Shown here: in pieces, positions 1 to 17,549 of the stretch | Layout of the letters: every line of letters begins with the position of its first letter | Numbering within the stretch: the first letter of the stretch is position 1 | Assembly: GCA_963701245.1 (NCBI GenBank) | Contig: OY969576.1 | Span: 208,456 to 272,455 of the forward strand | DNA: 64,000 nucleotides | From: an uncultured bacterium | Lineage (GTDB): Bacteria > Patescibacteriota > Saccharimonadia > Saccharimonadales > UBA4665 | Direction of reading: 5' to 3' | Made by a program: the position numbers and the translations under genes | The notes under the pieces: generated by a model | Databases searched by the model: none | Seen by the model: only the letters and a program-made list of their open reading frames with translations | Told to the model about the DNA's origin: nothing

Positions 1-920
1 AAGACCTCTGGAAACTGGTTAAGCCAACGATCCGGCAGATTGAAACTGACGACGGCATACTGGCTTTGGATGACACCATTGAAGAGAAGGCCTACACCGA
101 CGAAAACGACATCATTGCCTGGCACTATGACCACGTCTTCAACCGGAATGTGAAGGGCGTCAATATTCTCAATATGCTCTACCATAACGACCAGGCAACG
201 GTACCCTTGGGGTTTTGCCTGGTCAAGAAAGACGTACCTTTCACTGACCCGAAGACCGGCAAACAAAAACGCAAGTCCTCGGCCACCAAGAACGAACAGG
301 CCCGTGAGCTCATCGGGGCAGCCATCCAAAACCAGGTGAAGTTTCGCTACTGCCTTGCTGACAGTTGGTTTTCCTCACAGGAAAACATGGAGTTCATCGT
401 TGGCAAGGGCAAACACTTCATCTTTGCCCTCAAGAGTAATCGTACGTTTGCAAAAAGTAAGGAGGATAAACTACGAGGAGTATTCCACGCAGTCGAATCG
501 CTGGCCTGGGAAGAAAACACTACCAAGACAGGGTACCTCAAAGGCATGAATATGACGGTGCGTATCACCCGTCAAATCTTCACAAACGGAGATGACAGTC
601 AGGGTGTTTTGTATCTCGCTACCAGTGATCTGACGCTAGGACATACCGACATAACCACGATCTACCAAAAACGGTGGAAAGTGGAAGAGTACCACAAGTC
701 CGTAAAGTCCAACCTCGGGCTGGCCAAGTCACCGACCAAACGAGTGAAGACACAAAGTAACCACTTCTTTGCGGCAACCTATGCCTACCATAAGCTGGAA
801 CGACTGGCGAAAGCGAGCAATCTGAACCACTTTGCCTTAAAGGCAAAGCTATACCTCAAAGCTCAGCAAGCCAGTTTGGCTGAACTTCAGGTACTCAAAG
901 AAGCTGGAGGTTTTGCGTAA
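1..920 (+). CDS. DDE transposase, IS4 superfamily (partial, N-terminus outside window)
   Basis: Same protein as 7289..8383. Reading frame is open from nt 3. Carries the Y(2)R(3)E(6)K signature in YQKRWKVEEYHKSVK. Confidence 0.9.
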   Translation, partial: DLWKLVKPTIRQIETDDGILALDDTIEEKAYTDENDIIAWHYDHVFNRNVKGVNILNMLYHNDQATVPLGFCLVKKDVPFTDPKTGKQKRKSSATKNEQARELIGAAIQNQVKFRYCLADSWFSSQENMEFIVGKGKHFIFALKSNRTFAKSKEDKLRGVFHAVESLAWEENTTKTGYLKGMNMTVRITRQIFTNGDDSQGVLYLATSDLTLGHTDITTIYQKRWKVEEYHKSVKSNLGLAKSPTKRVKTQSNHFFAATYAYHKLERLAKASNLNHFALKAKLYLKAQQASLAELQVLKEAGGFA

Positions 921-929
921 GGTGAGTTA
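1..929 (+). mobile_element. IS4-superfamily insertion sequence, copy 1 (left part cut by window edge)
   Basis: nt 1-929 repeat 7464-8392 and 43359-44287, with identical ORF translations. Ends with right terminal repeat TGCGTAAGGTGAGT(TA) at 914-929. Confidence 0.9.
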
Positions 930-1052
930 ATAACCTTGCTTTGATGCCGTAAAAACCAATTAATTCTTCAACTTGTGGACGAGTTGTAATACTACCTTCG
1001 AAGGAGTAGATCATTACAAAAATAATAACATAAAATGATTATAATACAAATA

Positions 1053-1090
1053 CTTGGCTCCCCTTAGTGGGCAAGCTTAGAACTTTTGAC
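1053..1090 (-). repeat. Cassette-boundary repeat, A-type arm
   Basis: CTTGGCTCCCCTTAGTGGGCAAGCTTAGAACTTTTGAC; core CTTGGCTCC plus A arm. Confidence 0.7.
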
Positions 1091-1222
1091 TGTTGTGATT
1101 CAAAGATTGGGCAAGACGTTGCATAGAATCAGCCTGGTGTAGCTCTCTTGCTGCAGCTATTTCCCCGACTACGTCTTCAATTGGAATGAATTTAAAGCTC
1201 ACAAAAAACTAGCACAAAAAAA

Positions 1223-1918
1223 TTATACGCAGTGGATCAAGCCCTCCCATTTATAAGCATCGGACCTCTTCAGGGCACCATTGGCCAATTTGTTGACCAT
1301 TTTGAACTGACTGCGGTACGCAGCCACGGTTGCCATTTTCCCTAGCTGCTGGATGTTATCCAGTGCGACTGTTTCGACGCGAACATTTGAGTTGAGTAAT
1401 CGTTTTAGCTTTTCTACTGACAGTCGTCTAGGCCACTCCTTTAACCTCACTACTGGGAGTGCGTACGGTACGTCCGCATAAAATACGACATTATAGCCTT
1501 TGTCTCGCAGTATAACGCCGGCTTCTCGGACAGAGCAGTGATCTGGATGATTTCGAAAAAGTGTCCCTATTCCCGCCGGTAGGTATAATGACGAGTCCGA
1601 TTGTACCTGGGACTCGATGGCATCTGCAATGGCTATAATGTCACGTTGACAGTCTGCATAGGGAAGGTCAAGGAAGTCAAGGTACCTAATGGTGGTGTTG
1701 GTATCTTTGAGAGCCGCGTCATTCTCTGCTCTGCGGTCATACATGGAATCTTGTGCGTTTGTATATCCTGTTAATAAGTCCCATTTGCTAGGTTCAGGAC
1801 TTTCAGGGATGCCAGCGAAAACCGTGATTGATTCTGAGCCTAGAGCAAGTCGATTGTAGCAACTGAGCGGACCATCATCGATATGAGCAGAGATAATAAC
1901 CTCGTGGGGGGCATTCAT
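1223..1918 (-). CDS. PIG-L/LmbE-family deacetylase-like protein
   Basis: SAHIDDGPLS (AHPDD-like) and HPDH motifs. Start moved to MNAPHEV at 1918. Confidence 0.6.
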   Translation of the reverse strand: MNAPHEVIISAHIDDGPLSCYNRLALGSESITVFAGIPESPEPSKWDLLTGYTNAQDSMYDRRAENDAALKDTNTTIRYLDFLDLPYADCQRDIIAIADAIESQVQSDSSLYLPAGIGTLFRNHPDHCSVREAGVILRDKGYNVVFYADVPYALPVVRLKEWPRRLSVEKLKRLLNSNVRVETVALDNIQQLGKMATVAAYRSQFKMVNKLANGALKRSDAYKWEGLIHCV

Positions 1919-1957
1919 ATAGAGGTATACAATAACACAAAACATGGTAATTAACAA

Positions 1958-1998
1958 GTTTTGACTCCTCTCAGTTGACGGGCTTCGAACTTTTGATG
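1958..1998 (-). repeat. Cassette-boundary repeat, degenerate A-type
   Basis: GTTTTGACTCCTCTCAGTTGACGGGCTTCGAACTTTTGATG aligns to the A consensus. Confidence 0.5.
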
Positions 1999-2042
1999 TG
2001 TTGAAATCTGACGATTATGTACAAATGAAGCTTTGAGATTAT

Positions 2043-2303
2043 TTACGCAACTGTACGCTTTAATTTCTTGAGAACTATCTCATGATCCTTGACTACGTGC
2101 TCAATAATGATTAATCGATCATTAATATCGTTGACGGTTGCATGTACTTGATGTAACTCATGTCGAATAGTGGGTGCATCTTTTACGTATTCCGTGATGG
2201 CCTTTAGTTCATCTTGCAAAACCTCCCCATGCACTTCTTATCGTTTGTCATCGTTTAATGATTGCACGGCGTGGTCTAGTTTAGTCTTATAAATAGGGAT
2301 GAT
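2043..2303 (-). pseudogene. Small coiled-coil protein, paralogue of 8394..8657, with in-frame TAA
   Basis: The 63-aa ORF is about 75% identical to the C-terminal part of the 87-aa protein. Upstream in-frame sequence IIPIYKTKLDHAVQSLNDDKR is followed by a TAA (complement of 2238-2240) where the paralogue reads ERKEV. No ATG precedes it. Confidence 0.55.
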
Positions 2304-2330
2304 TTTCAGTCATTCGATAGTAAACGTCGT

Positions 2331-2364
2331 CCTAGCTCTCCCTAGTGGACGAGCTTAGAAGCTT
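2331..2364 (-). repeat. Cassette-boundary repeat, degenerate A-type
   Basis: CCTAGCTCTCCCTAGTGGACGAGCTTAGAAGCTT. Confidence 0.55.
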
Positions 2365-2692
2365 ACCGATTGAGTCGAGCCGCGATGGCGAAATGCAAGA
2401 AATAACGATCTAAGCTCTGGATAGATTCTTGACTTGCATGCTTATCAGAAATAATTTCTAAGAATTGTTGTTTTGCACGTCTTACTTCTTTTGCTCTTGG
2501 GGATTCTGATTTCCTCAAAATATAGATAGTGGCATTAAATAAATCAGTTGCACGCGCGATAGCCTGGTCCTTAGTCCTTTTGTCGTTAGCTTTAAAAGAT
2601 CGACCTACCTCACTGTAGATATTCCCCATTTGGTCAAATATGCCTAATTTTGCCCAACGTGTTCGGTCGACTGTGTAATGTTTTCTGTTCAT
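2363..2692 (-). CDS. Hypothetical helical protein (downstream gene of a two-gene cassette)
   Basis: 109-aa ORF that overlaps the upstream gene by 4 nt (ATGA-type coupling). Confidence 0.6.
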   Translation of the reverse strand: MNRKHYTVDRTRWAKLGIFDQMGNIYSEVGRSFKANDKRTKDQAIARATDLFNATIYILRKSESPRAKEVRRAKQQFLEIISDKHASQESIQSLDRYFLHFAIAARLNR

Positions 2693-3015
2693 TGCGTGAC
2701 TTTCCGCTTCACAATAGCAGTAATCTCTTCTCGAACGTTTTCATCTTCGATACCTCGTGACCTATTATTTTGCCTCTGACGAATGTTAATCATCGAGTCA
2801 AACTCAATGAACTCATCTGTGCCAAATTTCTCAGGATAAAGATTAATATCCCACAAGTCAGATTGTTTTGACTCCTCTTGGTCAACATGGAGTTCTGCAT
2901 CAACTACAAAAATTTGTTGTTTAATATCTACAACTGCTTTTACTAAATTGCCCAACATATTTTCAGCCATTTGAGTGAGCTCAGCAACAGTTATAGTATC
3001 TACTCTTTTCATCAT
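2689..3015 (-). CDS. DUF5674-like protein
   Basis: MAENMLGNLVKAVVDI...VVDAELHVDQEE...LWDINLYPEKFGTDEFIEFDSMINIR matches my recollection of the DUF5674 family common in CPR genomes. Confidence 0.6.
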   Translation of the reverse strand: MMKRVDTITVAELTQMAENMLGNLVKAVVDIKQQIFVVDAELHVDQEESKQSDLWDINLYPEKFGTDEFIEFDSMINIRQRQNNRSRGIEDENVREEITAIVKRKVTQ

Positions 3016-3030
3016 TTCAATTGTATCAAA

Positions 3031-3106
3031 ACAAAAAAACTTCCTGAGATGTCTTTTAAAGCATAAGCATCTTGGCTCCCCCTAGTGGACGTTCTTCGCA
3101 ACTATA
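3031..3106 (-). repeat. Cassette-boundary repeat (conserved left arm + core + A arm)
   Basis: ACAAAAAAACTTCCTGAGATGTCTTTTAAAGCATAAGCAT-CTTGGCTCC-CCCTAGTGGACGTTCTTCGCAAC. Confidence 0.75.
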
Positions 3107-3142
3107 GTAGTGCTGGCTTCATGATAGTTCTATAGTTAGAGC

Positions 3143-3712
3143 ATGGCCGAAAATAGACGATTAATAGCTGGGCAGATTGCTCCTGACTTCAGTCTAAAAG
3201 ATATTTATGGGAATAAGGTTAGACTGGCAGACTACAAGTATGACAAGCTACTCATTTGTTTTTTTAGATATGCAGGTTGTCCCTGGTGTAACCTGGCTAT
3301 TCACCGGCTTACAATGTCTTACCGTGCCCTAGACGAACTAAATCTCAAAATTATTGCTTTTATTCAGTCAGAACCTGCAAACATTCAGAGATATATATTT
3401 GATCGTCATGATCCACAGCCTCAATTTCCAATAATTGCCGATCCTGACCGTACTGTCTACAATTTGTATGGGGTTAATGACTCGATGTCTGCGGCCGCTA
3501 GATCGCTTGTTAAACTTCCGGACTGGTTGCATGCAAGTTTTGGTAGTAATTTTAAGCAAGGTAAGGTAGACGGAAGCTTAACTCTCGTCCCTGCTCAGTT
3601 CCTTATAGGGCAGAACAGCCACAAAATCTATAAAGTAAATTATGGAGCGGATTATTACAACAGTGCTCCCATAGTTGAGATTATGGATTTTGCACAATTT
3701 GGCGCAGATTAA
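3143..3712 (+). CDS. Peroxiredoxin-like thioredoxin-fold protein (AhpC/TSA family)
   Basis: APDFSLKDIYGNKVRLADY...FFRYAGCPWC motif. Confidence 0.65.
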   Translation: MAENRRLIAGQIAPDFSLKDIYGNKVRLADYKYDKLLICFFRYAGCPWCNLAIHRLTMSYRALDELNLKIIAFIQSEPANIQRYIFDRHDPQPQFPIIADPDRTVYNLYGVNDSMSAAARSLVKLPDWLHASFGSNFKQGKVDGSLTLVPAQFLIGQNSHKIYKVNYGADYYNSAPIVEIMDFAQFGAD

Positions 3713-3880
3713 TGGTAAGACTAAACCAAGACTAAGTTACTTGCTTCTCAGAATCTAACTTCGCTGCCTTACTTTTAGCCGAGCCTGAGTTGCCTTGTAA
3801 AACTACTAGTTTATTATCGTAAAGTTTCATAAATAATAATAGCAAAGTGGAAGTTCTGGAGCTGTCCGCTATCCTCGTTC

Positions 3881-3963
3881 AAAATAAAAAACAGAGACTA
3901 CCTGCCTCTGATGAGTTCGTCGAAACTTGGCTCCACCTAGTGGACGAGCTTCGAACTTTTGAG
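3881..3963 (-). repeat. Cassette-boundary repeat (A-run, hairpin, core, A arm)
   Basis: Hairpin CAGAG..CTCTG at 3892-3910, then CTTGGCTCCACCTAGTGGACGAGCTTCGAACTTTTGAG at 3926-3963. Confidence 0.75.
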
Positions 3964-3978
3964 AATTCTGAATTAGTC

Positions 3979-4218
3979 TCAAACAGTGAGCTTGTAACCA
4001 ATTTTGTCTGCTAGTTCATGAGTCCACTTGTCTAAACGATCAAGTTGGTGACCTATTACTAGTCTTTCCTCTTCATTTATTTCCTGCTTTTTCGGTAATT
4101 CATCAATCATGTTGTCAAGTCTATCAAATCTCAATGTTTGTTTCTCAAATTTTTCGTCAATCTTATCAAATCGTACAGTCATGTATTTAAACAGCTTTGT
4201 GAATTCATCTTGGCTCAT
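3979..4218 (-). CDS. Small coiled-coil protein
   Basis: 79-aa ORF rich in D/E/K heptad-like sequence. Occupies a single cassette. Confidence 0.6.
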   Translation of the reverse strand: MSQDEFTKLFKYMTVRFDKIDEKFEKQTLRFDRLDNMIDELPKKQEINEEERLVIGHQLDRLDKWTHELADKIGYKLTV

Positions 4219-4262
4219 GACACTATTTTAACATATTTACGTCATTTCAATTTTATGTCTTT

Positions 4263-4333
4263 AAATCAAAAAGACCTCTAATAAATAGAGGTCAAAATGC
4301 TTATGGCTCAGTTGACTTTGACGAAATGGAACC
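4263..4333 (-). repeat. Cassette-boundary repeat, degenerate
   Basis: Hairpin AGACCTCTA/TAGAGGTC at 4272-4293, then CTTATGGCTCAGTTGACTTTGACGAAATGG. Confidence 0.45.
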
Positions 4334-4416
4334 GTATCAAGGCTGAAATGATAGAAATGTGGCAGCTAGTAGTATCTAATAACTTAACTTCAAATTTAAG
4401 TGCTTAGCAATTTGTT

Positions 4417-4665
4417 CTATTTGTTTTCGAGCCTGTCTACTTTCGCCCCAAGCGCAAGCATCTCTTGCATGTATGTTTCGGCCTGTTTGGCATATGCGTC
4501 TACTGCTCTTGCATATATATCAATAGATTGTTTTAATTCTTCACGAATCAGATTACTTTCTTTTTGCGAGTTTTCAAATCCCTTAACTATACTCGACGCC
4601 ATTCGTTCTAACTGAGCATCCAACTTGTCTATTTTTTCATCCAGTGTTAGAGATTGTTTCGTCAT
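4417..4665 (-). CDS. Small coiled-coil protein
   Basis: 82-aa ORF. A shifted frame just past the stop reads QIEQIAKHLNLKLSY, which resembles the C-terminus of 3979..4218, so the 3' end may be frameshifted. Confidence 0.55.
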   Translation of the reverse strand: MTKQSLTLDEKIDKLDAQLERMASSIVKGFENSQKESNLIREELKQSIDIYARAVDAYAKQAETYMQEMLALGAKVDRLENK

Positions 4666-4705
4666 GAAATAATTGTAGCATCAATACCCTTATATCTACT
4701 TTTCT

Positions 4706-4747
4706 GTATAAGCATCTGGCTCCCCCTCTGGTGGTCGACCTTTTCGG
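4706..4747 (-). repeat. Cassette-boundary repeat, A-type variant
   Basis: TATAAGCAT-CTGGCTCC-CCCTCTGGTGGTCGACCTTTTCGG. Confidence 0.55.
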
Positions 4748-5290
4748 CTATGTATTTATTGAATCTACAACAAACTTGACTGCATCAATGAGATGATGTG
4801 CGCAAAACACTGCATGGGGAGAAACGACCTTTTTATTGGTTGCAGTTTTGACCAAGATGCCTCCCTTACAATGTGCATTCAATGCTGCTTGTATATCCGA
4901 ATCACTGTCACCTATCATATAAGTCCGTGTGAGATTTAGTTCAAAGTCTTTTGCTGCTTGTAGCAACATATTTGGTCCAGATTTACGCCAATCAGTTGCA
5001 CTTGGTCCAGCTTTCTCTCCATTCATATATGTTTTTAATACTTTTACGCCGCTCGGTTCTAATTTACGTAATATTACGTCGTGAATACGCCAGAAATCAT
5101 CCTCTGTAATACGCCCTTCTGCGATGCCAGCCTGATTAGTAACAAAAACTACCGAAAAATCATTAGTTGCAAGATAATTAAGTGCTTCAATAGAGTCCGA
5201 AAATAATTCTATTTTTTCAATAGAATCAACACGCTCATCTTTCGGGTCAACGATTACAGTACCATCTCGGTCAAGGATTACTACGTTCAT
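4748..5290 (-). CDS. HAD-IIIA family phosphatase (GmhB-like)
   Basis: VVILDRDGTV, VTNQAGIA and IGDSDSDIQAA motifs. Start set at MNVVILD. Confidence 0.7.
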   Translation of the reverse strand: MNVVILDRDGTVIVDPKDERVDSIEKIELFSDSIEALNYLATNDFSVVFVTNQAGIAEGRITEDDFWRIHDVILRKLEPSGVKVLKTYMNGEKAGPSATDWRKSGPNMLLQAAKDFELNLTRTYMIGDSDSDIQAALNAHCKGGILVKTATNKKVVSPHAVFCAHHLIDAVKFVVDSINT

Positions 5291-5300
5291 GTCAATACTA

Positions 5301-5389
5301 TAACAAAACAAAAAGATCTCCGAAGAAGTCTTTTAAGCATAAGCGTCTTGGCTCGGCAAATGATTTTTATTCCAAACTTTTTCAATCAG
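5301..5389 (-). repeat. Cassette-boundary repeat (left arm + core + truncated B1 arm)
   Basis: AACAAAACAAAAAGATCTCCGAAGAAGTCTTTTAAGCATAAGCGT-CTTGGCTC-GGCAAATGATTTTTATTCCAAACTTTTT. Confidence 0.75.
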
Positions 5390-6155
5390 AGAACAGACGA
5401 GAATTACTCTCGGTCCACCGTGCCCGCTTTTCAACTTCATCAAGATCACCATTCTCAACCCATTCGACTTGCGGCTGAACGCCTCGACTCGCAAGATATG
5501 CCTCGTGTCTACCGACAGATCTTTGCATTGCGGCAACTTTAGTCGCGACATTTGGTATAGTTGGGGTGCCATAGGCCTCAAAAAAGACGCTAATCCGATG
5601 TTGTCTATTAGGTACTTTCGGAAAGTGGTGCCACTTGATCGTTGTTTCATCGTCCCGAAATGGGGCAGAATACTCAAGCCCATACAAAATATCTTCTTCG
5701 GGGACAGCTGGATGTACAAGATCCCAGTCAATTATTCCTACAGGATCACTACCTCGCCAAACAATGTTCCATGGGCCAAAATCTCCATGGCAAACAATCT
5801 CTCCCGGCTTAAGGTATACAGCTCCGGTTGACCACTCTAAGTTCTCGTGTGGTTTATATTCTGCAATTGCGTCATGGTATGAACGTAATAACTTAGCAAA
5901 TTTTCGGAGGCCTTCATCACTAACGATTCTCTCCCATCCGGCTGCACCGGACTCGCCTTCAACGTAACTGAGGACTTCCCGGCCATCCGAGTCATTTTCG
6001 AATACCCGGGGAGAATATGGGAAATCTAGTGATTTAAGGTACTTAAGTAAGTCATGAACGGCGGGCGTCCACCAATGAGTCGGGCGATGGACTTTATCGC
6101 CAATACGTACGATGGATCGTTTGTCATCAGTAGTTAGTTGTTCTTCATCCACCAA
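5382..6155 (-). CDS. Aminoglycoside-phosphotransferase (APH)-family kinase
   Basis: HGDFGPWNIVW and IIDWD catalytic-loop motifs. Confidence 0.7.
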   Translation of the reverse strand: MVDEEQLTTDDKRSIVRIGDKVHRPTHWWTPAVHDLLKYLKSLDFPYSPRVFENDSDGREVLSYVEGESGAAGWERIVSDEGLRKFAKLLRSYHDAIAEYKPHENLEWSTGAVYLKPGEIVCHGDFGPWNIVWRGSDPVGIIDWDLVHPAVPEEDILYGLEYSAPFRDDETTIKWHHFPKVPNRQHRISVFFEAYGTPTIPNVATKVAAMQRSVGRHEAYLASRGVQPQVEWVENGDLDEVEKRARWTESNSRLFSD

Positions 6156-6173
6156 ATTATCATATCAAAAAGA

Positions 6174-7208
6174 AATTGAGGTAAAGGAATGGATATATCA
6201 GGTCGAGGCTCTAAACATATAGGACGTCTAAGTTAATAGTAGCATTCTCATATCCGGGCAGACTCTGTAAGTATTCGAGTGGTGTCATCATACCGAGTGA
6301 GGTATGTGGGCGGTATGTATTGTAGCGTTCGCAGTCTTCCAACAGGAATCGCTTAAGGTCCACGAAATTATGATCTATTTTGAAATGTTTCCGTAGGTAT
6401 TTGTCTGAGCCATGGCTGCGCTCAATAAACCCATTGAGTTGTGGTGAGCTGGCTTTAATTAAGCGATGCTCAATACCATGGCTGGTCAGCCATATGGTTA
6501 CTGGGTGAGTTATCTTATCCTGTGGCCACTGGGTGTAGGTGAACTCAGTACCATTGTCTGTCTGGATGGTTTGAAAGCTGAAAGCTGGCTCAAAGAATCT
6601 GACGGCATGCTCCAGGAAGTCGATGGTATTTCGGGGATGGTAATCATAGTACAGGCGCTTGTATTTGAGCCTGGTGGCACAATCTATGATGTCGTATTGG
6701 TAGGCGGCTCGTTTCCAGTGCTTCACGTCCATCTGACCACGCTCACCGGGTACATATTGCTGGTCAGATAGTTTACGTGAACGTTTGTTGACCTTTCTCT
6801 TAGCGAGCAATTCAGCTCGCCTAAGAACGTTATTAACACCTTTATGAGATATGGTGATGCCATAATCCCGCTCAAGGATCCTGGATAGGCCGTGCTTACC
6901 GTAGCCATACTCCAATCTCAGGCCAACGATGAGACCAGCTAATTCCTCATCAATTATGCGAGGGTTATCTTTTGGTATTCTGGGCTTGTCGTAAAGTGCT
7001 GTTACTTTCTTATCTCCGGCAATCCAACGTTTATGCCAATAGTAGTACTCACTCCTTGCTATTCCAAACCATTTACAAGCTTCAGTAACACTACCTAATT
7101 CTTCTGCCTTCCTAAACCAAGCAAGTCTAATCCGAGCTCCGTAGACTAAGAGCTGTTTCTGGGTCATAGTTCTGGTACTCACTTTCATTACTCCTTTCTA
7201 TCTTAATT
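6174..7208 (-). mobile_element. IS481/IS3-superfamily-like insertion sequence
   Basis: Single rve-type transposase ORF. Imperfect terminal repeats AATTGAGGTAAAGGAAT (6174-) and the complement of AATTAAGATAGAAAGGAGT (-7208). Boundaries are tentative. Confidence 0.55.
6211..7188 (-). CDS. Integrase-core (rve) DDE transposase, IS481-like
   Basis: N-terminal HTH region, then GERGQMDVKH...IQTDNGTEF...NGFIERSH, typical of retroviral-integrase-type transposases. Confidence 0.8.
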   Translation of the reverse strand: MKVSTRTMTQKQLLVYGARIRLAWFRKAEELGSVTEACKWFGIARSEYYYWHKRWIAGDKKVTALYDKPRIPKDNPRIIDEELAGLIVGLRLEYGYGKHGLSRILERDYGITISHKGVNNVLRRAELLAKRKVNKRSRKLSDQQYVPGERGQMDVKHWKRAAYQYDIIDCATRLKYKRLYYDYHPRNTIDFLEHAVRFFEPAFSFQTIQTDNGTEFTYTQWPQDKITHPVTIWLTSHGIEHRLIKASSPQLNGFIERSHGSDKYLRKHFKIDHNFVDLKRFLLEDCERYNTYRPHTSLGMMTPLEYLQSLPGYENATINLDVLYV

Positions 7209-8392
7209 ACTCACCTTACGCATCACTCCCACTTTCTTGAGTCCTGGGGCATACTAAAAGCAGTCAACCTTTCATCAAGGATGTTGCTATGCCAAAACAA
7301 AAACAATCCAAGCCCGTCAACGTACCAATGCTTGACCTGTATTCTGACTATCTCATCAGCTCATTCGGATTGACCACGGCAACTGGTATGTCGGCCGCCC
7401 TGGACGGGTCAGTCGGCCATGACGACGTCACCCGTTTCCTGTCTGCCCGGGAATATACCAACAAAGACCTCTGGAAACTGGTTAAGCCAACGATCCGGCA
7501 GATTGAAACTGACGACGGCATACTGGCTTTGGATGACACCATTGAAGAGAAGGCCTACACCGACGAAAACGACATCATTGCCTGGCACTATGACCACGTC
7601 TTCAACCGGAATGTGAAGGGCGTCAATATTCTCAATATGCTCTACCATAACGACCAGGCAACGGTACCCTTGGGGTTTTGCCTGGTCAAGAAAGACGTAC
7701 CTTTCACTGACCCGAAGACCGGCAAACAAAAACGCAAGTCCTCGGCCACCAAGAACGAACAGGCCCGTGAGCTCATCGGGGCAGCCATCCAAAACCAGGT
7801 GAAGTTTCGCTACTGCCTTGCTGACAGTTGGTTTTCCTCACAGGAAAACATGGAGTTCATCGTTGGCAAGGGCAAACACTTCATCTTTGCCCTCAAGAGT
7901 AATCGTACGTTTGCAAAAAGTAAGGAGGATAAACTACGAGGAGTATTCCACGCAGTCGAATCGCTGGCCTGGGAAGAAAACACTACCAAGACAGGGTACC
8001 TCAAAGGCATGAATATGACGGTGCGTATCACCCGTCAAATCTTCACAAACGGAGATGACAGTCAGGGTGTTTTGTATCTCGCTACCAGTGATCTGACGCT
8101 AGGACATACCGACATAACCACGATCTACCAAAAACGGTGGAAAGTGGAAGAGTACCACAAGTCCGTAAAGTCCAACCTCGGGCTGGCCAAGTCACCGACC
8201 AAACGAGTGAAGACACAAAGTAACCACTTCTTTGCGGCAACCTATGCCTACCATAAGCTGGAACGACTGGCGAAAGCGAGCAATCTGAACCACTTTGCCT
8301 TAAAGGCAAAGCTATACCTCAAAGCTCAGCAAGCCAGTTTGGCTGAACTTCAGGTACTCAAAGAAGCTGGAGGTTTTGCGTAAGGTGAGTTA
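7209..8392 (+). mobile_element. IS4-superfamily insertion sequence, copy 2 (complete)
   Basis: Terminal inverted repeats ACTCACCTTACGCA (7209-) and TGCGTAAGGTGAGT (-8390). About 1.18 kb with one transposase gene. Confidence 0.85.
7289..8383 (+). CDS. DDE transposase, IS4 superfamily
   Basis: 364 aa with the Y(2)R(3)E(6)K signature. Identical to 43184..44278. Confidence 0.9.
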   Translation: MPKQKQSKPVNVPMLDLYSDYLISSFGLTTATGMSAALDGSVGHDDVTRFLSAREYTNKDLWKLVKPTIRQIETDDGILALDDTIEEKAYTDENDIIAWHYDHVFNRNVKGVNILNMLYHNDQATVPLGFCLVKKDVPFTDPKTGKQKRKSSATKNEQARELIGAAIQNQVKFRYCLADSWFSSQENMEFIVGKGKHFIFALKSNRTFAKSKEDKLRGVFHAVESLAWEENTTKTGYLKGMNMTVRITRQIFTNGDDSQGVLYLATSDLTLGHTDITTIYQKRWKVEEYHKSVKSNLGLAKSPTKRVKTQSNHFFAATYAYHKLERLAKASNLNHFALKAKLYLKAQQASLAELQVLKEAGGFA

Positions 8393-8393
8393 C

Positions 8394-8657
8394 TTAAGCA
8401 ATCTTACGTTTTAGTTTCTTGAGATCTGATTCATGCTCTTTTACGACGTGTTCAATAGTTGTCAGTCGATCACTAATTTCATTAACGGTGGCATGTACTT
8501 GGTGCAGTTCTTGTTGAATAGAAGGTACGTCTTTAACGTACTCTGTGATGACTTTTAGCTCATCCGCTAAAACTTCGCCTAATACTTCTTTTCTTTCGTC
8601 ATCGCTTAATGATTGCATAGTATCGTTTAGTTTAAGCTTATACATAGCGATTATCAA
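8394..8657 (-). CDS. Small coiled-coil protein (intact paralogue of 2043..2303)
   Basis: 87-aa ORF. Its stop codon lies 1-3 nt from the right end of IS copy 2. Confidence 0.6.
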   Translation of the reverse strand: MIIAMYKLKLNDTMQSLSDDERKEVLGEVLADELKVITEYVKDVPSIQQELHQVHATVNEISDRLTTIEHVVKEHESDLKKLKRKIA

Positions 8658-8660
8658 TAA

Positions 8661-8822
8661 TTATTAACAAACAAAAAAACTTCCAAAAAAGTCTTTTAAT
8701 CATAAGCATCTTGGCTCGGCAAATGGTTTTTATTCCAAACTTTTGAAGAGCTGGACCGTTCTAAAAACAAGGAGCTGGAGACCCAGCAAATACGACAACT
8801 TATCGATAAACCCGATAATTAA
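8661..8822 (-). repeat. Cassette-boundary repeat (left arm + core + full B1 arm)
   Basis: TTAACAAACAAAAAAACTTCCAAAAAAGTCTTTTAATCATAAGCAT-CTTGGCTC-GGCAAATGGTTTTTATTCCAAACTTTTGAAGAGCTGG... The arm stays open as WLGKWFLFQTFEELD...QQIRQLIDKPDN*. Confidence 0.8.
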
Positions 8823-9076
8823 CCGTAGAGTTGGCTATGCGTGCCCACTATATCGAAGATTACTTCTTCTACGCGTTGTAGGTAGAGTGCTCGAACATCA
8901 CCGGTAATATCTATACTTCGGTACTCTTTCCACTTCCCTTTTAACTGATGGTTACGAAGCGTTGGATGGAGCGGGTTTTCGGCAAACGTTTCTATTCTTT
9001 CAAGTAACTTCTGTCGCACTTTAGGGGTTAACTTTTTCGCTTGAGCGATGAAGCTCTTGGAATATGAAATTTTCAT
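8819..9076 (-). CDS. RelE/YafQ-family type II toxin
   Basis: 85 aa with HPTLRNHQLKGKWKEYRSIDITGDVRALY. Overlaps the upstream antitoxin gene by 4 nt. Confidence 0.7.
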   Translation of the reverse strand: MKISYSKSFIAQAKKLTPKVRQKLLERIETFAENPLHPTLRNHQLKGKWKEYRSIDITGDVRALYLQRVEEVIFDIVGTHSQLYG

Positions 9077-9354
9077 TTCAATTCGTCGGCCAAAAACTCG
9101 AGACTTTCTTTATTGTCGCTAAAGCGGTGGTAGTCACTTTCTTCGATCTGTTTTTTTGACATAGCCAATTGCTTTGCCGTCTGCTTGTTGGGAACTTCTG
9201 GTACCTCAAAGACGACGCTCTGTTCGGCGGCAAAACGGCGGAGTTCATTGTTTAAAACTGCACTCACGCTTACGCCGAGTTTGTTTGCAACTTGGGTCGC
9301 CAACTTCTTAAGCTCTGGGTCGGTTTTCAGGTTGATAACTGCATAGTTACTCAT
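9073..9354 (-). CDS. RelB/DinJ-like antitoxin
   Basis: Small ORF translationally coupled to the toxin. Ribbon-helix-helix-like N-terminus INLKTDPELKKLATQVANKLGVSVS. Start set at MSNYAV. Confidence 0.6.
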   Translation of the reverse strand: MSNYAVINLKTDPELKKLATQVANKLGVSVSAVLNNELRRFAAEQSVVFEVPEVPNKQTAKQLAMSKKQIEESDYHRFSDNKESLEFLADELK

Positions 9355-9436
9355 ACCAAAAGTATATACTATTGGTATATACAATGTCAATAACGCTGAT
9401 GGTATGCATTAAGGGTTATTGGTTGTATGGTCCAAG

Positions 9437-9520
9437 CAAGAATGCACCTCAATTAAAGAGGTGCATTCTAAGTTTTCTGACGTTGCCCCCCCTAGTGGAT
9501 GAACTTCGCAACTTCTCAGT
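9437..9520 (-). repeat. Cassette-boundary repeat (hairpin + diverged core + A arm)
   Basis: Hairpin GAATGCACCTC/GAGGTGCATTC at 9440-9468, then CTGACGTTGCCCCCCCTAGTGGATGAACTTCGCAACTTCTCAG. Confidence 0.65.
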
Positions 9521-9842
9521 GGATACTGAAGACTTTACCGCCGAACCAATACTTATTCATCTCACGTAAGAACTTTTCGCTTATAGGGTAACCAGAAGCA
9601 TCACCAAGCACAGCGTCTATTTCACAATATGGACACATGCAGAATTCAAGCTTAGTGTCATCATCTCGTGCGCTAAACAACCACTCCTTAATTTGGTCTG
9701 GCTTAAAAGTGTGAAGGCAATAGTAACAGCCGCACATGTCACTTTTCCTTATCTTGGTGGCATAGTTTTCGTCAAGGCGGTGTGCTAATTGTATGTCTTT
9801 TGGAATTTTTGACATTAGATCATCATTCTTTACATTATTCAT
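9516..9842 (-). CDS. Cysteine-rich (CxC..CxxC / CxC..CxxC) putative zinc-binding protein
   Basis: 108 aa with CGCYYC...CMCPYC spacing. No family recognised. Confidence 0.5.
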   Translation of the reverse strand: MNNVKNDDLMSKIPKDIQLAHRLDENYATKIRKSDMCGCYYCLHTFKPDQIKEWLFSARDDDTKLEFCMCPYCEIDAVLGDASGYPISEKFLREMNKYWFGGKVFSIH

Positions 9843-9850
9843 TCTTAAAT

Positions 9851-10031
9851 TATAACAAAAATGACCCCAAAACAGAGGTCATTTAAACATAAGCACCTTG
9901 GCTCGGCAACTGGTTCCGGAATATAACCTTTATGCAAGATAAGGAAGTTAACATCAATGATCTTCGCCAGCTCATAGATACCAGTGAACATGCACCAGGA
10001 TGTTAGCCTAGTGGATGTGCTCTGCGGCTAC
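9851..10031 (-). repeat. Cassette-boundary repeat (left arm + core + B2 arm + A-like tail)
   Basis: Hairpin ATGACC/GGTCAT at 9861-9882, CATAAGCAC-CTTGGCTC-GGCAACTGGTTCCGGAATATAACC..., then CCTAGTGGATGTGCTCTGCGG at 10007-10027. Confidence 0.8.
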
Positions 10032-10042
10032 AATAAGCGAGA

Positions 10043-10564
10043 CTAGATGATAGAAACAAGCTCGGTGGTCTTTCTTAGGATTGTTTTCTGAGATTCAGTA
10101 GACACGTCAAATACTATGTCTGCGTATTGAGACGATGGTAGTACGTATCTTTCGTACATAGGCTTTAACACATATGTAAGGTAGTTATCCCACATTGGGT
10201 GTACTCTCCTTTTTGCAATGACTTCAAACGGCGCCTCCAAGAATATTTTTAGGTTTAATAGTTCACGTATTTCCTTGAAGTGCAGTAACAGGAATCCCTC
10301 AACAACTATTAAGTTTGGTTGCTCAACATTATCTATTAATCGGCTAAGGTTTTGTATGAGTCTAGGAAGGTTAACGGATATCGGATCGTCGTGATTATGC
10401 TCTCCAGCCAAAATAGGCATATCTTTTTCTGCGACGAAGAAGTCGTCTAAATGTATTATCGTCGATTCTTTAGGGAATGCTTTCTTCAAGCCTTCCGCTA
10501 ACGTTGTCTTGCCAGATCCTGATCCCCCAGCGATACCGACAATAAAAGGGTGCTTCATATCCAA
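10043..10564 (-). CDS. Uridine-kinase/PRK-family P-loop kinase
   Basis: IVGIAGGSGSGKTTLAEGL Walker A motif and family-typical length. Confidence 0.6.
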   Translation of the reverse strand: MDMKHPFIVGIAGGSGSGKTTLAEGLKKAFPKESTIIHLDDFFVAEKDMPILAGEHNHDDPISVNLPRLIQNLSRLIDNVEQPNLIVVEGFLLLHFKEIRELLNLKIFLEAPFEVIAKRRVHPMWDNYLTYVLKPMYERYVLPSSQYADIVFDVSTESQKTILRKTTELVSII

Positions 10565-10620
10565 AGTTTAACAGAATCAAACTCTCTTGACTGGTCTAAC
10601 TAAGACCATCCGCTGCCACC

Positions 10621-10772
10621 ACCAACAAAAAACAGAGGCAAATAACCTCTGCTAATTTGAGTTCTAATCTTGGCTCGCCGTTTCCTTCTGGAATATAACC
10701 ATTGCAAAAGAAAGTGAGGCAGACGTCAAAGAAGGGCGTGACCTGATTTGTGGAGACAGTGAGGAGGAGTAA
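10621..10772 (-). repeat. Cassette-boundary repeat (hairpin + core + diverged B2 arm)
   Basis: Hairpin CAGAGG/CCTCTG at 10633-10651, then CTTGGCTCGCCGTTTCCTTCTGGAATATAACC... The arm is open as WLAVSFWNITIAKESEADVKEGRDLICGDSEEE*. Confidence 0.65.
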
Positions 10773-10899
10773 AAATACAGAACTGAAGCCCTCCGACGAA
10801 GTTCAAATATAGTCCACGAACATCTTGATCCCTAAACGACGAGAGCAAGCTATAATGCCTATGGTTGTATATATCGACATAATCTAGCAAAATAGACTA

Positions 10900-12393
10900 A
10901 TGCGAGAAGTATCATGGGGTGTAGTTGGTCGCGGCAATATCGGTGGTGAGCTAATAGCTGCCATTCCTGCTGACGCCGGTTTAGATTTATCTCCTTCACC
11001 CGATTTTATAGCGACGTCCAAAGGTATTAATGCTTCCGACGGTATACATGACTATGGTGTAGCTGATATTCGAGACATTCCGCCCGGTTTGATGCCCGAT
11101 ACGCTCTTCGTTGCTTGCCCTACTACTGACGATGGCCTGCCGGCCAGCACTTATGTCGAACATGCTCTCAGAAGCGGCAAAACCGTTATCACAGCCGAGA
11201 AAGGCGCGCTATCGGCTAATTTCGCAGGGATGAGAGAGCTTTCAGATGGTTTCCGACGGCTCGGATTTACAGCAACAGTGGGCGGCGGATCGTTGCTTTT
11301 GCCCCACGCAAAGTGGCTAATCCAGGGTAATCCTAACGGTATGAGTCGATTTGTCGGGAAGTTTAACGGTACGGTAGAAGCTACATTTAATGACGCTTCA
11401 GAGGAGTTCGGTAGAGGCGTACCTCCCGAAGAAGCGATTGCCAAAGCGGTTGAACTCGGTTATGCAGAACCGGGGAGCCACGAGCCATTTGATGTGTTGA
11501 GGGCTGAGCTAGACGGTGATATTCCGAAGAAGTTACACATTTTCTTATCCTACATTTTGGGGCTAGAGGGCTTGACCGTAGATGGTCTTCGCGGTACATC
11601 TCTAGATGACGATACAATCAGTCAAGCTTTCGCCGAGGATAGACGACATGTTGTATCCGTAACTAATTTATCCCTAGGCGAACCACAACCAGAGGGTATG
11701 TTAATCGGTGGTATATCACGAGAATATCAAGGGTGGTTGATAGAAACTGGTTTTCAAAGAATAGGCGAGCAGGCTTTAGCAAGACTCCACTCGATGACTG
11801 GGCCAGGCAATGGGTTCGCGCTTTTTCTTGGACGCGACGGTAGGGATGGTACGCATACCCTGACTGGGCCGGGCGCAGGGGCGGGCCCGACGGTCGAGTC
11901 AATGCTTAGAGATCATCGTCTCTTAGCTCGTGATGCAACTAAAGACATGACTTTGGCCGAAAGGGTAAAAGGCTTTGGCGGTGGTGCCCCACGACCGCAA
12001 CTTTCAGAAGCCGAAAGAAGCGAGAGCCGGCTCCAGTCACATACTGAAAGTGTTGCTGCATTGCAGCGGGCGGGATTAAAACTCGCATATTCCGCATTAT
12101 GGACACCACATGGCGGCGGTATTGCTATCGATGCATATTGGAGAGCAAGAGAGGAGCTGGTGAGCCAGTACGGGTCTGACAAAGTCCTTAATGGTCCAGC
12201 AATACTCCCGAGCGACGGCAGCGAAGATGGCTTAGGTGGTCTTGGCATATGGATACCGGCAGGGGACGGCTCTGCCTTCGCAAAGTACGATAGGTATCTC
12301 GATCAAACACATAGTGGGCGGTGGGTATTAACCCCAGATGCTCCAGTGGAGCCTAGGGCTTCATCAAGCAAACTGCTAAGTATTTTCAGATAG
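10900..12393 (+). CDS. Homoserine-dehydrogenase-like oxidoreductase with unassigned C-terminal extension
   Basis: N-terminal VVGRGNIGGE dinucleotide-binding motif, TATVGGGSLLL and GPGAGAGPTVESMLRD resemble HSD blocks. The last ~150 aa are unassigned. Visibly G+C-richer than its neighbours. Confidence 0.55.
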   Translation: MREVSWGVVGRGNIGGELIAAIPADAGLDLSPSPDFIATSKGINASDGIHDYGVADIRDIPPGLMPDTLFVACPTTDDGLPASTYVEHALRSGKTVITAEKGALSANFAGMRELSDGFRRLGFTATVGGGSLLLPHAKWLIQGNPNGMSRFVGKFNGTVEATFNDASEEFGRGVPPEEAIAKAVELGYAEPGSHEPFDVLRAELDGDIPKKLHIFLSYILGLEGLTVDGLRGTSLDDDTISQAFAEDRRHVVSVTNLSLGEPQPEGMLIGGISREYQGWLIETGFQRIGEQALARLHSMTGPGNGFALFLGRDGRDGTHTLTGPGAGAGPTVESMLRDHRLLARDATKDMTLAERVKGFGGGAPRPQLSEAERSESRLQSHTESVAALQRAGLKLAYSALWTPHGGGIAIDAYWRAREELVSQYGSDKVLNGPAILPSDGSEDGLGGLGIWIPAGDGSAFAKYDRYLDQTHSGRWVLTPDAPVEPRASSSKLLSIFR

Positions 12394-12529
12394 GACGAAA
12401 GTGAATTAGAAGCTATTTTTATGTGTAGCTGCGAAACAGATTCACCCGTTCTATATGTATTCAACATAATCAAACCAAAAATTCCCCATTTTACAGGGGG
12501 AACTAATGATGTAGTGAAAACTTTTCTTA

Positions 12530-12620
12530 CTTGGCGCGGCAAATGGTTCCGGAATACAATCTTTACGTCAGAAAATGAAATCAATGTCAAGGAAGTCCGG
12601 CAACTAATCGATAATAATCA
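12530..12620 (-). repeat. Cassette-boundary repeat (variant core + B2 arm)
   Basis: CTTGGCGCGGCAAATGGTTCCGGAATACAATC... The arm reads WRGKWFRNTIFTSENEINVKEVRQLIDNNQ. Confidence 0.7.
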
Positions 12621-13121
12621 GGAGGGCTTTGGGTCGGAGGCGCTATTAAGCAGTGTCCTATACTCAAGATCTGAGAGGCTGACTAACTTGCTGTCTCGCC
12701 CTAAGTCAGATTCGGTTATCTCCACACCGGACCAGTCAGGAGGCAAAAAATGAATGGCTTCTTCGGTGCTACGAAACTCGACTTCCAATCGTATCAGCCC
12801 TTCAAAGCGACCATGATAAACCTTGATTGTAGTGTTCTTAGTGTCCGGGACTACGTAACTGTCACGTTCGATGCTGGCAATAGCGTGCTGGCGAAGTTCA
12901 TTGAACTTTTCAATGGTAATTGGAGTGACCTTTTTAGAACTAGAAAGCCGATCATGTGTAACTTTTTGCTCAGAGAAATACTTATCGCCTTTTCGTTGAA
13001 TTCTCAACTCTTCACCTGGCCCTACATTCAAGAAATATCTCTCATAGATAACTTTGGAGGTGAGATCAATGCTTGAAGGAATAGAGCTTAGTAGAAATTT
13101 GCGTTCTATCTCGTTGGCCAT
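12618..13121 (-). CDS. CYTH-domain (triphosphate tunnel metalloenzyme) protein
   Basis: N-terminal EIERKFLL (ExExK) signature and about 165 aa. Confidence 0.7.
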   Translation of the reverse strand: MANEIERKFLLSSIPSSIDLTSKVIYERYFLNVGPGEELRIQRKGDKYFSEQKVTHDRLSSSKKVTPITIEKFNELRQHAIASIERDSYVVPDTKNTTIKVYHGRFEGLIRLEVEFRSTEEAIHFLPPDWSGVEITESDLGRDSKLVSLSDLEYRTLLNSASDPKPS

Positions 13122-13147
13122 ATTGATATTTTACAGTACGCCTATAA

Positions 13148-13314
13148 ACAAAAACGCCAACCACAAAGTTGACGTATTGTACAATAACTGGCTCGGCAAA
13201 CTGTTTTTATTCCAAACTTTTGAAGAGCTAGATAGCATCAAAGATAAAGAGGCAGAGATACAGCAGATCCGTCAGCTTCTAGATGAGGGTCAGAAAGAGG
13301 AACAACTATGTTAA
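13148..13314 (-). repeat. Cassette-boundary repeat (hairpin + variant core + full B1 arm)
   Basis: AACAAAAACGCCAAC..GTTGACGT hairpin, then CTGGCTC-GGCAAACTGTTTTTATTCCAAACTTTTGAAGAGCTAG... The arm reads WLGKLFLFQTFEELD...IQQIRQLLDEG...*. Confidence 0.75.
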
Positions 13315-13794
13315 CGCAATTCCTCCGCCGATCTACAAATACTTCCCCCGACCTGCTTGAATCAAAACTGTACGACGAGAAAACGTTCTACCCTGCTTTC
13401 CTCAATGACCTAAACAATTGCGGAAGCGAACTCATCATTGAATGCCCGTTCGTTACTCGCAGACGGCTGCAAAGCTTATTGCCAACGTTGCAGAAGCTTA
13501 AAGCGCGCAAGGTGCGAATTATCATCAACACCAAAGATCCCCATGAGCTAGACGAGGAACGGCGAGAAGAAGCATACCATGCGGTTGCGTCACTGCAACA
13601 CAAGGGTATCCAAGTCATATTATACCCATGGACATCACAGAAAGCTGGCCATCATTGACCGATCAATACTTTACGAGGGTTCGCTCAATATTCTTTCTCA
13701 GAACAGGAGCACAGAGATTATGCGAAGGACCGAGTCGGTGCAACTTGCGTGGCAGATGGCGAGGTTTGTTGGGATAGACGGGTTTATCGCCTAA
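13308..13794 (+). pseudogene. PLD/HKD-superfamily nuclease-like gene, frameshifted
   Basis: Two overlapping frames (13308..13658 and 13579..13794). The HKD motif HRKLAIIDRSILYEGSLN lies in the second frame, and the shift is near 13620. Confidence 0.6.
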
Positions 13795-16560: not shown

Positions 16561-16598
16561 AACAAAAACAGATCGGAAAACCAAACTTTTCTGATCTG
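16561..16598 (-). terminator. Rho-independent terminator of the tRNA-Asn gene
   Basis: Minus strand reads CAGATC-loop-GATCTG followed by TTTTTGTT, 10 nt after the CCA end. Confidence 0.7.
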
Positions 16599-16608
16599 TT
16601 ATTTTTCT

Positions 16609-17026
16609 TGGCTCCGGGGACTGGATTCGAACCAGCGACCTAGTGGTTACACGTATTCCCTATTTTCATAGTGGCGTGGACTATCTCATCATCCAAATCA
16701 TATGGATGCAGGGCGCTAATGAGAGATTATTGTTAGGCTCACTCTCTAGTCTCTGAACCTTCCAGAACCCTTTAACCTAGTTCTGGCTTGGCTGCGGATT
16801 ACCTTGATCAATATGATTGTAGGCTTCCCGCAATTCACCCTGTTTTCACTGTTTAATTTATTAAACAGGCTGCACTTAAAATCTTGAAAGTTTTGGACTG
16901 TAGTTTACATTTGTTAATTTAATCCAAAAACTTCAACGACGTTGCATAAAATAGATAATTTCATCTAAAAAATTGCATATAATTTGTGTCGTACAGCCAC
17001 CCGCTCTACCGCTGAGCTACCCCGGA
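16609..17026 (-). tRNA. tRNA-Asn(GUU) interrupted by a group I intron (exons 16993-17026 and 16609-16649)
   Basis: The joined exons give a 75-nt cloverleaf, UCCGGGG-UA-GCUC-AGCGGUA-GAGC-G-GGUGG-CUGUUAA-CCACU-AGGUC-GCUGG-UUCGAAU-CCAGU-CCCCGGA-G-CCA. U1-A72 and G73 fit bacterial tRNA-Asn. Confidence 0.8.
16650..16992 (-). ncRNA. Group I intron (tRNA-type, no ORF)
   Basis: Minus strand contains CCGCAGCCAAGCC (16785-16797), GGUUCAGAGACUAG (16746-16759) and GAGAUAGUCC (16678-16687). These match the conserved group I core elements as I recall them from the Tetrahymena and Anabaena introns. The 5' exon ends in U and the intron ends in G. Confidence 0.75.
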
Positions 17027-17045: not shown

Positions 17046-17074
17046 ATTATATCTGACGTATCCTAGTCGCGCAA
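17046..17074 (-). promoter_or_regulatory. Sigma-70-type promoter for the tRNA gene
   Basis: Minus strand reads TTGCGC, a 17-nt spacer, then TATAAT. The -10 box ends 20 nt upstream of the tRNA 5' end. Confidence 0.55.
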
Positions 17075-17081: not shown

Positions 17082-17549
17082 CTAATTTCTAAATTGTTTT
17101 ATAGCTGTTTGACTTCTTCGCTTGTCGTCACGTTCCTTGAGAGTTTGCCGCTTGTCATAGAGTTTCTTACCGCGGCCCTCAGCTATTCTTACTTTGATGT
17201 ATCTGCCATTTGTCAAAATGTCGAGAGGTATTATAGTTTTACCCTGTTGTTTGGCGGCAATAAATTTCTGTATTTCTTTTCGTTTGGCCAGAAGTTTTCT
17301 GGCCTGTGTTTGTTGATTTTCAGGAATAATGACACCACTAGTGCCACTGATGGTCGCATTTATGAGCCATAGTTCATCGTCTTTAATCGTCACATAAGAG
17401 CCACGTAACTGACCATGACCCATACGTAGGGCCCTTGTTTCAGCACCAGTTAATTGGATGCCTACAATTAATGAATCGTCGAGATTATAGTCGTGACGTG
17501 CACGGCGATTTGAGATAGATTTAGCTTGGTGAGACTTCTTTTTAGACAT
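17082..17549 (-). CDS. smpB: SsrA-binding protein SmpB
   Basis: NRRARHDYNLDDSLIVGIQLTGAE...LRGSYV and a C-terminal basic tail. 155 aa. Confidence 0.9.
   Translation of the reverse strand: MSKKKSHQAKSISNRRARHDYNLDDSLIVGIQLTGAETRALRMGHGQLRGSYVTIKDDELWLINATISGTSGVIIPENQQTQARKLLAKRKEIQKFIAAKQQGKTIIPLDILTNGRYIKVRIAEGRGKKLYDKRQTLKERDDKRRSQTAIKQFRN

Follow-up and report, generated by a model that had tools for sequence, protein, structure and literature searches.

The DNA analyzed here, a stretch of 64,000 nucleotides of contig OY969576.1 (the 64-kb window, or simply the window), belongs to a Saccharibacteria-like genome and carries next to smpB a tRNA-Asn(GUU) gene that is interrupted between anticodon positions 35 and 36 by a group I intron of 343 nucleotides. 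We consider it very probable that this is a regular smpB-adjacent tRNA-Asn gene and that the intron, which is intact and has no open reading frame (ORF), is removed by RNA-catalyzed self-splicing. The intron is not a rarity of one genome; it is one copy of a large, apparently unreported family.

With its default mode ARAGORN found no tRNA in the whole 64 kb, and in intron mode it found one gene, a minus-strand tRNA-Asn(gtt) with an intron given as i(35,343). A preliminary description of this DNA had proposed two tRNA halves 343 nucleotides apart on the minus strand, with the 5' exon ending in U and the intron in G, and had suggested such an intron-aware run; the split returned by ARAGORN agrees with it exactly, in the coordinates and in both end bases. 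Once the insert is taken out, the exons form a cloverleaf with a GUU anticodon (ARAGORN gave the same result for the ligated exons and in intron mode). The predicted ligated junction is ...GGCUGU/UAACCACU... (the slash marks a splice site here and below), the anticodon loop is the CUGUUAA foreseen in that description, and the CCA end is encoded (16611-16609). The pair U1-A72 and the discriminator G73 make up the bacterial Asn identity signature; both were present, as had been claimed, and the same features were seen in 98 of 102 members of the intron family. Furthermore, the ligated exons were identical in 75 of 75 positions to the uninterrupted tRNA-Asn of at least 78 metagenome contigs (78 of the 120 loci listed, a lower bound, recovered with a 32-nucleotide probe across the ligated junction). 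In 38 of these 120 loci smpB was found nearby, often 50-130 nucleotides upstream of the tRNA, like in the window, where the tRNA starts 56 nucleotides downstream of smpB.

The insert matched the Rfam group I intron model RF00028 on the minus strand (16890-16657) over the complete model (positions 1-253 of 253), scoring 89 bits (E=2.1e-21) where the gathering score is 50. This match is far beyond chance and was the sole Rfam hit in the window, bearing out the earlier assignment to group I. The three core motifs named in support of that assignment, CCGCAGCCAAGCC, GGUUCAGAGACUAG and GAGAUAGUCC, were all located, and neither intron strand had an ORF of at least 40 amino acids, in agreement with the description of the intron as ORF-less. 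The P1-P9 secondary structure suggested as a further check could also be built and is backed by compensatory changes in relatives. Seventeen related introns, that of the window included, were aligned after L1 (the loop of P1) had been shortened in seven of them, the window among these. From this alignment RNAalifold recovered unaided the anticodon stem, P1, P2, P3, P4, P5, P5a, P6, P6a, P8, P9.0 and P9. In the structure completed with the pseudoknot P7, 97.2% of the cells were standard pairs, compared with 30-41% when the 3' partners were slid by 1-3 columns. Compensatory changes were found in 39 of the 64 pairs, and none of 500 shuffles reached the observed values. The anticodon stem, in which both exons pair with each other (helix 1 of the alignment), is part of this pattern, with compensatory changes in three of its five pairs.

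The pair U16993.G16873 lies at the 5' splice site, and a U.G pair was found at this point in all 17 aligned sequences. P1 extends into the intron by two pairs, A16992-U16874 and C16991-G16875, and the first intron pair beside the splice site covaries (GC in seven sequences, AU in six, CG in two, GU in one and UA in one). Of the 107 columns conserved in 15 or all 16 of the relatives, the copy in the window deviates at only two, namely the first base of the P2 loop and one base of the 3' tail, neither of them in the catalytic core. Between P7 and the 3' strand of P3 there is an extra hairpin resembling P7.1, whose stem GAGAG/CUCUC is replaced in a compensatory manner by GAAGG/CCUUC in loci L102 and L042; in other relatives the same interval holds two hairpins in many cases and none in two. 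The loop of P6 (16757-16792) contains UAGG, which is complementary to CCUA in the loop of the P7.1-like hairpin (16721-16746). Complementary 4-6-mers were found in these loops in most of seven close relatives, inconsistently, and appear shifted in L042 and L078; a tertiary contact between both loops may exist and is weakly suggested by the sequences. The positions of all the elements are collected in Table 1.

Table 1 Features of the interrupted tRNA-Asn(GUU) gene and its surroundings in the window
Feature	Position	Strand	Basis
tRNA-Asn 5' exon, 34 nt: acceptor, D-arm, anticodon-stem 5' strand, CUGU (C32 U33 G34 U35)	16993..17026	-	ARAGORN intron mode
tRNA-Asn 3' exon: U36 A37 A38, anticodon-stem 3' strand, variable loop, T-arm, acceptor, G73, CCA	16609..16649	-	ARAGORN
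ORF-less group I intron of 343 nt, ending in G16650, the terminal (omega) G	16650..16992	-	RF00028, ARAGORN, ORF scan; core identity of 80-83% with the introns of this gene in four other Saccharimonadales
L1, loop of P1, 119 nt, AT-rich	16874..16992	-	Alignment and guide-sequence positions
Internal guide sequence GCAGCC, pairing with exon GGCUGU (16998-16993) to give P1	16868..16873	-	Alignment, covariation
P2 hairpin, 7 bp, loop UAAA	16850..16867	-	All 7 pairs with compensatory changes
P3 5' strand (16842-16836) and P4-P5-P5a-P6-P6a domain (16832-16757)	16757..16842	-	RF00028, covariation
P7 5' strand GACUA, pairing with 16683-16679 (UAGUC)	16747..16751	-	Alignment
P7.1-like extra hairpin between P7 and the P3 3' strand: GAGAG, 16-nt loop, CUCUC	16721..16746	-	29-nt insertion relative to the Rfam model
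P3 3' strand (16715-16709) and P8 hairpin (16708-16690)	16690..16715	-	Covariation
P7 3' strand (16683-16679), P9.0 (16677-16675 with 16653-16651), P9 with GAAA loop (16673-16658)	16651..16683	-	Alignment
smpB (SsrA-binding protein), directly upstream, syntenic marker	17082..17549	-	ORF list; PF01668 on all homologues, those bearing a name being Saccharibacteria or Patescibacteria
Probable promoter: TTGCGC (17074-17069), 17-nt spacer, TATAAT (17051-17046), ~20 nt upstream of tRNA position 1	17046..17074	-	Read from sequence
Terminator-like hairpin, 14 pairs, then T-rich run, 9 nt past CCA	16567..16600	-	Listed by the scan on the + strand

On this basis the following course can be proposed. The gene would be transcribed from its own promoter to the hairpin terminator. 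In the precursor the exon sequence GGCUGU and the first two intron bases would pair with GU-GCAGCC, 119 nucleotides downstream, giving the P1 that sequence and covariation show, with the U of the splice site in the U.G pair, and the P3-P9 core would fold as the model match and the compensatory changes show. By the established group I mechanism, exogenous guanosine held at P7, by analogy the guanosine-binding helix, would attack after U35; the terminal G16650 would then take the place of the guanosine, and the freed 3'-OH of U35 would attack before U36. The anticodon stem, whose pairing is seen in the alignment, would hold the exons together without a separate P10 helix, a role suggested by the Anabaena tRNA-Leu intron. 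Ligation would leave the standard Asn loop CUGUUAA in a tRNA identical to that of the intron-free relatives.

Several points weigh against self-splicing of this intron as the route to a working tRNA. Splicing is a prediction from the sequence, and a second intact tRNA-Asn gene may be present elsewhere in the genome. The P7 helix (GACUA/UAGUC) is invariant in the 17 sequences and, because it never varies, covariation is uninformative on it. Apart from the anticodon stem, no pairing was found that would make a convincing P10. Furthermore, the P2 loop is UAAA in the window and begins with G (GUAA, GCAA or GAAA) in 15 of the 16 aligned relatives, P9 contains one A.G mismatch, and L1 is unusually long, exceeding by 111-114 nucleotides the 5-8 nucleotides found in the closest ORF-less relatives; each of these three features could slow folding or weaken tertiary contacts.

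The same three features would fit an intron that has the group I fold and splices inefficiently in vivo, either needing help from a chaperone or maturase-like protein of the host or limiting the supply of tRNA-Asn by its slowness, and many group I introns do need protein help (Hausner et al. 2014, PMC3984707). We regard this as unlikely, given that all core helices and 105 of the 107 conserved columns are intact, that the GAAA loop of L9 is kept, and that the long L1 folds on itself as two hairpins closed by an 8-bp P1 (-31.1 kcal/mol, z=-4.1), so that P1 stays closed. Besides, the small bacterial tRNA introns that have been studied (Azoarcus, Anabaena) self-splice in vitro. Still less likely, in our opinion, is a dead or dying gene copy in which the intron no longer splices and another tRNA-Asn gene is used. 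The absence of a homing endonuclease ORF and an L1 that looks like AT-rich filler might be taken as signs of decay, and the tRNA search covered the 64-kb window of a contig of about 1.9 Mb. However, the exons match functional genes that have no intron at 100% identity and the intron core is conserved, the gene occupies a conserved position beside smpB that holds tRNA-Asn in relatives, promoter motif and terminator are retained, and there is no other tRNA within the 64 kb. Finally, the local sequence (CUGU/ACG...ACGUG/UAA) also allows a tRNA-Thr(UGU) with the intron after U33 (CU/GU...ACG/UGUAA), which was indeed the ARAGORN call, Thr(tgt) i(33,...), in roughly half of the relatives and whose artificial splice product also makes a cloverleaf, but this host was rejected as next to impossible since U33 would face A instead of forming the invariant U.G of P1 (17 of 17), the tRNA bodies of the family are of the Asn type and abundant uninterrupted genes equal the Asn ligation product.

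The surroundings of the interrupted tRNA-Asn gene were compared with those of orthologous loci. The sequence TTGCGC-17-TATAAT is the probable promoter of the gene, as judged from its sequence, and a TTTGCG...TATAAT arrangement is retained in the orthologous loci L121, L122 and L123. It was missing from the consensus-scan list because its -35 hexamer matches the consensus in only 3 of 6 positions. The terminator-like palindrome reads equally on the minus strand, where it is followed by TTTGTTT. Within the Saccharimonadales the order smpB then tRNA-Asn is kept, in L042, L067, L102 and L123-L129. In L123, L042, L102 and L067 the tRNA-Asn beside smpB has an intron at the same site, while in L124-L129 it is uninterrupted; L022 has the intron and its smpB lies about 2.9 kb away. 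Identity with the window in SmpB and in the intron core, respectively, was 75% and 83% for L123, 70% and 64% for L067, 68% and 82% for L022, 65% and 81% for L042, and 64% and 83% for L102, and the intron-less lineages had a SmpB identity of 71-73%. This sporadic presence, together with an intron similarity that does not track host similarity, is the usual picture of a mobile intron with gains and losses. The exons, on the other hand, were identical across the window, L022, L042, L067, L102 and L123 in spite of intron cores only 64-83% identical, indicating selection on the exons, that is, for a working tRNA.

Two other details of these loci deserve mention. In L124-L129 the anticodon stem is GGGCG/CGCCU, compared with GGUGG/CCACU in the window, which alters the base facing the last position of the guide sequence and part of the likely endonuclease target. 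This stem could represent a resistant allele or mere divergence. The contig of L121 comes from an independent short-read assembly of the same organism (Logan ERR11523669; SmpB 100% identical to that of the window) and breaks off precisely at the 5' splice site (...GGTGGCTGT). A branch of the assembly graph is the probable cause, as the 34-nucleotide exon is common to co-occurring species with different introns or none, and the idea of an intron polymorphism was dropped in favor of this simpler explanation.

To establish how widespread the 35/36 intron is, one-genome-per-species contigs were scanned with a pattern made up of the P7 3' strand followed by the 3' half of an Asn-like tRNA; the pattern itself demands the terminal G in the introns of the relatives, and the 120 matches are a lower bound. 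An independent exon finder identified a tRNA-Asn split after CUGU in at least 101 genomes (101 of the 120 matches listed), and of 19 that were sampled, 17 were confirmed by RF00028 as having a group I intron. The preliminary description had called an Asn(GUU) host with a 35/36 insertion unusual, which stands with regard to the literature searched and fails with regard to nature, where at least 101 species-level genomes share the arrangement. Host groups were taken from the titles of the genome records, and all the counts refer to the matches listed. Patescibacteria were found with at least 36 genomes (11 of them Saccharibacteria), followed by Cyanobacteria (Microcoleus, Tychonema, Phormidium, Hormoscilla and Floridaenema) with at least 13, Nitrospirota and genomes labelled Gammaproteobacteria with at least nine each, Deltaproteobacteria with at least six, Omnitrophota with at least five and Planctomycetota with at least four. 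Methylomirabilota, Limnocylindria, Binatia, Elusimicrobia, Margulisiibacteriota, Gemmatimonadota and Bdellovibrionota contributed one or two genomes each. The matches include complete genomes (CP174360.1, CP070837.1 and CP143273.1). In addition, at least four genomes in DPANN bins carried tRNA genes of archaeal type (G1-C72, no encoded CCA). These archaeal-type tRNA-Asn genes with a group I intron at 35/36 are L058 (intron at about 108-620, minus strand), L004, L010 and L092, and on two of their contigs there are archaeal marker genes (MCM, the TATA-box-binding protein and a universal archaeal KH protein).

Split Asn-type tRNA genes with inserts of 197-566 nucleotides were also seen in five IMG/VR contigs (L132, L133, L135, L138 and L141), two of them of 470-543 kb. 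These contigs are classed as viral and could come from huge phages that have an intron-bearing tRNA of their own, from host DNA flanking proviruses, or from cells if the classification is wrong. As a separate observation, the LOOT RNA (RF03000) was found above its gathering score in two Saccharibacteria loci near the split tRNA-Asn (L052, 682-797, and L017, 7814-7918).

Intron lengths in the family are bimodal, 190-345 nucleotides without ORF and 500-630 nucleotides with one. In the members with 500-630-nucleotide introns L1 houses a conserved ORF, mostly of 100-135 amino acids, with the consensus R.Y.DR..YL..AV..RR...G..C..CGY...AL.FHH...K.F..S..G..RSW...E..KC.L.CANCH.E.H. The ORF of L022 extends with its last codons into the internal guide sequence. 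The profile PF01844 (HNH) reached 17 bits on the ORF of relatives, below its cut-off, and the HNH assignment was made from the motif CxxC...HH...CxNCH and from the source annotations, in which some homologues appear as HNH or McrA. Introns of at least 500 nucleotides were found in 24 of the 101 family members listed, 20 of which had a recognizable HNH ORF, and in the protein collection this ORF family amounted to at least 1,701 clusters at E 1e-5 or better. In two of the archaeal-type copies an HNH protein is encoded that shares about 60% identity with its bacterial counterparts.

The copy in the window is an ordinary endonuclease-free member of the family. It has no HNH ORF and is therefore probably immobile by itself, and would be kept only because it splices. 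Similarity to the beginning of the L022 intron (76%, E=0.01) is confined to about the first 33 nucleotides of its L1. No HNH remnant was detected in this L1 by tblastn with the intron ORFs, including the 20 HNH ORFs, or by nhmmer with a profile of long L1 sequences; a decayed HNH gene as the origin of this loop is a guess.

Putting together the distribution, the structure and the endonuclease, a broader proposal can be put forward tentatively, as a serious possibility on which we would not yet rely. According to it, these introns would be an undescribed and mobile group I family crossing domains, specific for the 35/36 site of tRNA-Asn(GUU), with a build different from subgroup IC3 that includes hairpins like P7.1/P7.2, driven by the small HNH protein encoded in L1, and spread horizontally among Patescibacteria, at least 12 other bacterial phyla and DPANN archaea. 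If this were true, the family would include the first report of group I introns from tRNA genes of archaea.

The preliminary description had also held that the tRNA gene anchors a nearby array of gene cassettes. This was not borne out, as there is no second tRNA 3' end in the window (allowing up to 3 mismatches) and the nearest repeat of the array is more than 3.3 kb away, so that the tRNA was discarded as the attachment site of an island or cassette array. In a test of ten larger ORFs on the downstream side of the tRNA (66-13658), no tyrosine integrase turned up, only transposases of insertion sequence (IS) type. The array itself (1050-13300) consists of several families of direct repeats of 34-96 nucleotides between small genes, including a toxin-antitoxin pair (8819-9390), kinases, AhpC, HAD and APH. 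Copies of the repeats are located, for example, at 5299/8662/9849, at 9897/10669/12530 and at 8712/13189, and a repeat unit of the type TTGGCTCC.CCTAGTGGACG..CTTCGAAC at 1052, 2330, 3070, 3925 and 9480. An exact repeat of 300 nucleotides (1-300 and 7464-7763) derives from two copies of an IS element with a DDE transposase (66-920 and 7289-8383), between which there is a separate transposase gene of the rve family (6211-7188).

The intron in the window is probably ordinary in its mechanism and functional, as far as its sequence can tell. Its wider relevance lies first in annotation. Standard tRNA finders miss the split gene, and consequently Saccharibacteria, other Patescibacteria, Nitrospira, cyanobacteria of the Microcoleus type and others wrongly seem to have no tRNA-Asn, an apparent absence that distorts genome completeness checks. 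It also extends the short list of group I introns in bacterial tRNAs by a fifth host tRNA and by a new site, 35/36, which is tied to a dedicated HNH endonuclease. Furthermore, the presence of the intron and HNH pair in bacterial and archaeal-type tRNA-Asn genes, with about 60% protein identity, provides a case for studying ribozyme transfer between episymbiotic bacteria and archaea in shared habitats.

Group I introns in a tRNA-Asn gene of bacteria or archaea were not mentioned in the literature searched, which left most subscription journals outside its scope, and we provisionally regard the family as undescribed. Only fMet and Ile2 cases are reported in the tRNAscan-SE 2.0 paper, and Nawrocki et al. 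(2018) found group I introns of archaea in rRNA genes only. Self-splicing group I introns are described in bacterial tRNA-Leu(UAA), tRNA-fMet, tRNA-Ile(CAU) and tRNA-Arg(CCU) (PMC8450103, PMC3984707). Like these, the Asn intron is a small ribozyme placed in the anticodon loop directly after a U, with the anticodon loop and the 5' side of its stem contributing to P1 and with the exons joined by the anticodon stem; it is likewise sporadic among related hosts, with most copies ORF-less. It differs from them in its Asn(GUU) host and 35/36 site, in the extra hairpin or hairpins beside P7, and in the HNH endonuclease found in L1 of its relatives. Of the sites known in bacterial tRNAs, that of the Leu intron is 34/35 and that of the other three is 36/37. 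These classical introns belong to subgroup IC3, in which, to our knowledge, there is nothing between P7 and the 3' strand of P3 (no P7.1/P7.2). The IC3 layout understood in this way, with P7 leading directly to the 3' strand of P3, is broken by the 29-nucleotide insertion in the window and by two hairpins in many relatives. Hairpins P7.1/P7.2 at this place are typical of the phage introns of subgroup IA (T4 td, Twort), and the one or two extra hairpins of the Asn family lie at the same place of the core, a likeness to be taken only as a lead; unlike the Asn introns, those phage introns sit in protein-coding genes.

Regarding the endonuclease, the nearest precedent considered is the tRNA-fMet intron of Synechocystis with an intron-encoded endonuclease (Bonocora & Shub 2001, as cited in PMC3984707). 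The ORF of the Asn family is, in contrast, an HNH-type protein of about 100-115 amino acids located in L1, with its last codons overlapping the guide sequence, and the copy in the window has no ORF. With regard to the host group, rRNA insertions with LAGLIDADG genes have been reported in the candidate phyla radiation (CPR), along with group I introns in some of its tRNAs (Lui et al. 2021, PMC8172020; PMC11809585). Lui et al. 2021 (PMC8172020) stated, with no details, that such introns hide some CPR tRNAs from detection. The window intron is found in the same group of hosts and has the same consequence, since standard finders miss the gene and the genome seems to be without the tRNA. In contrast to those reports, in which tRNA, site and endonuclease were not named, the present analysis gives them as Asn(GUU), 35/36 and HNH and shows that the family extends far beyond the CPR.

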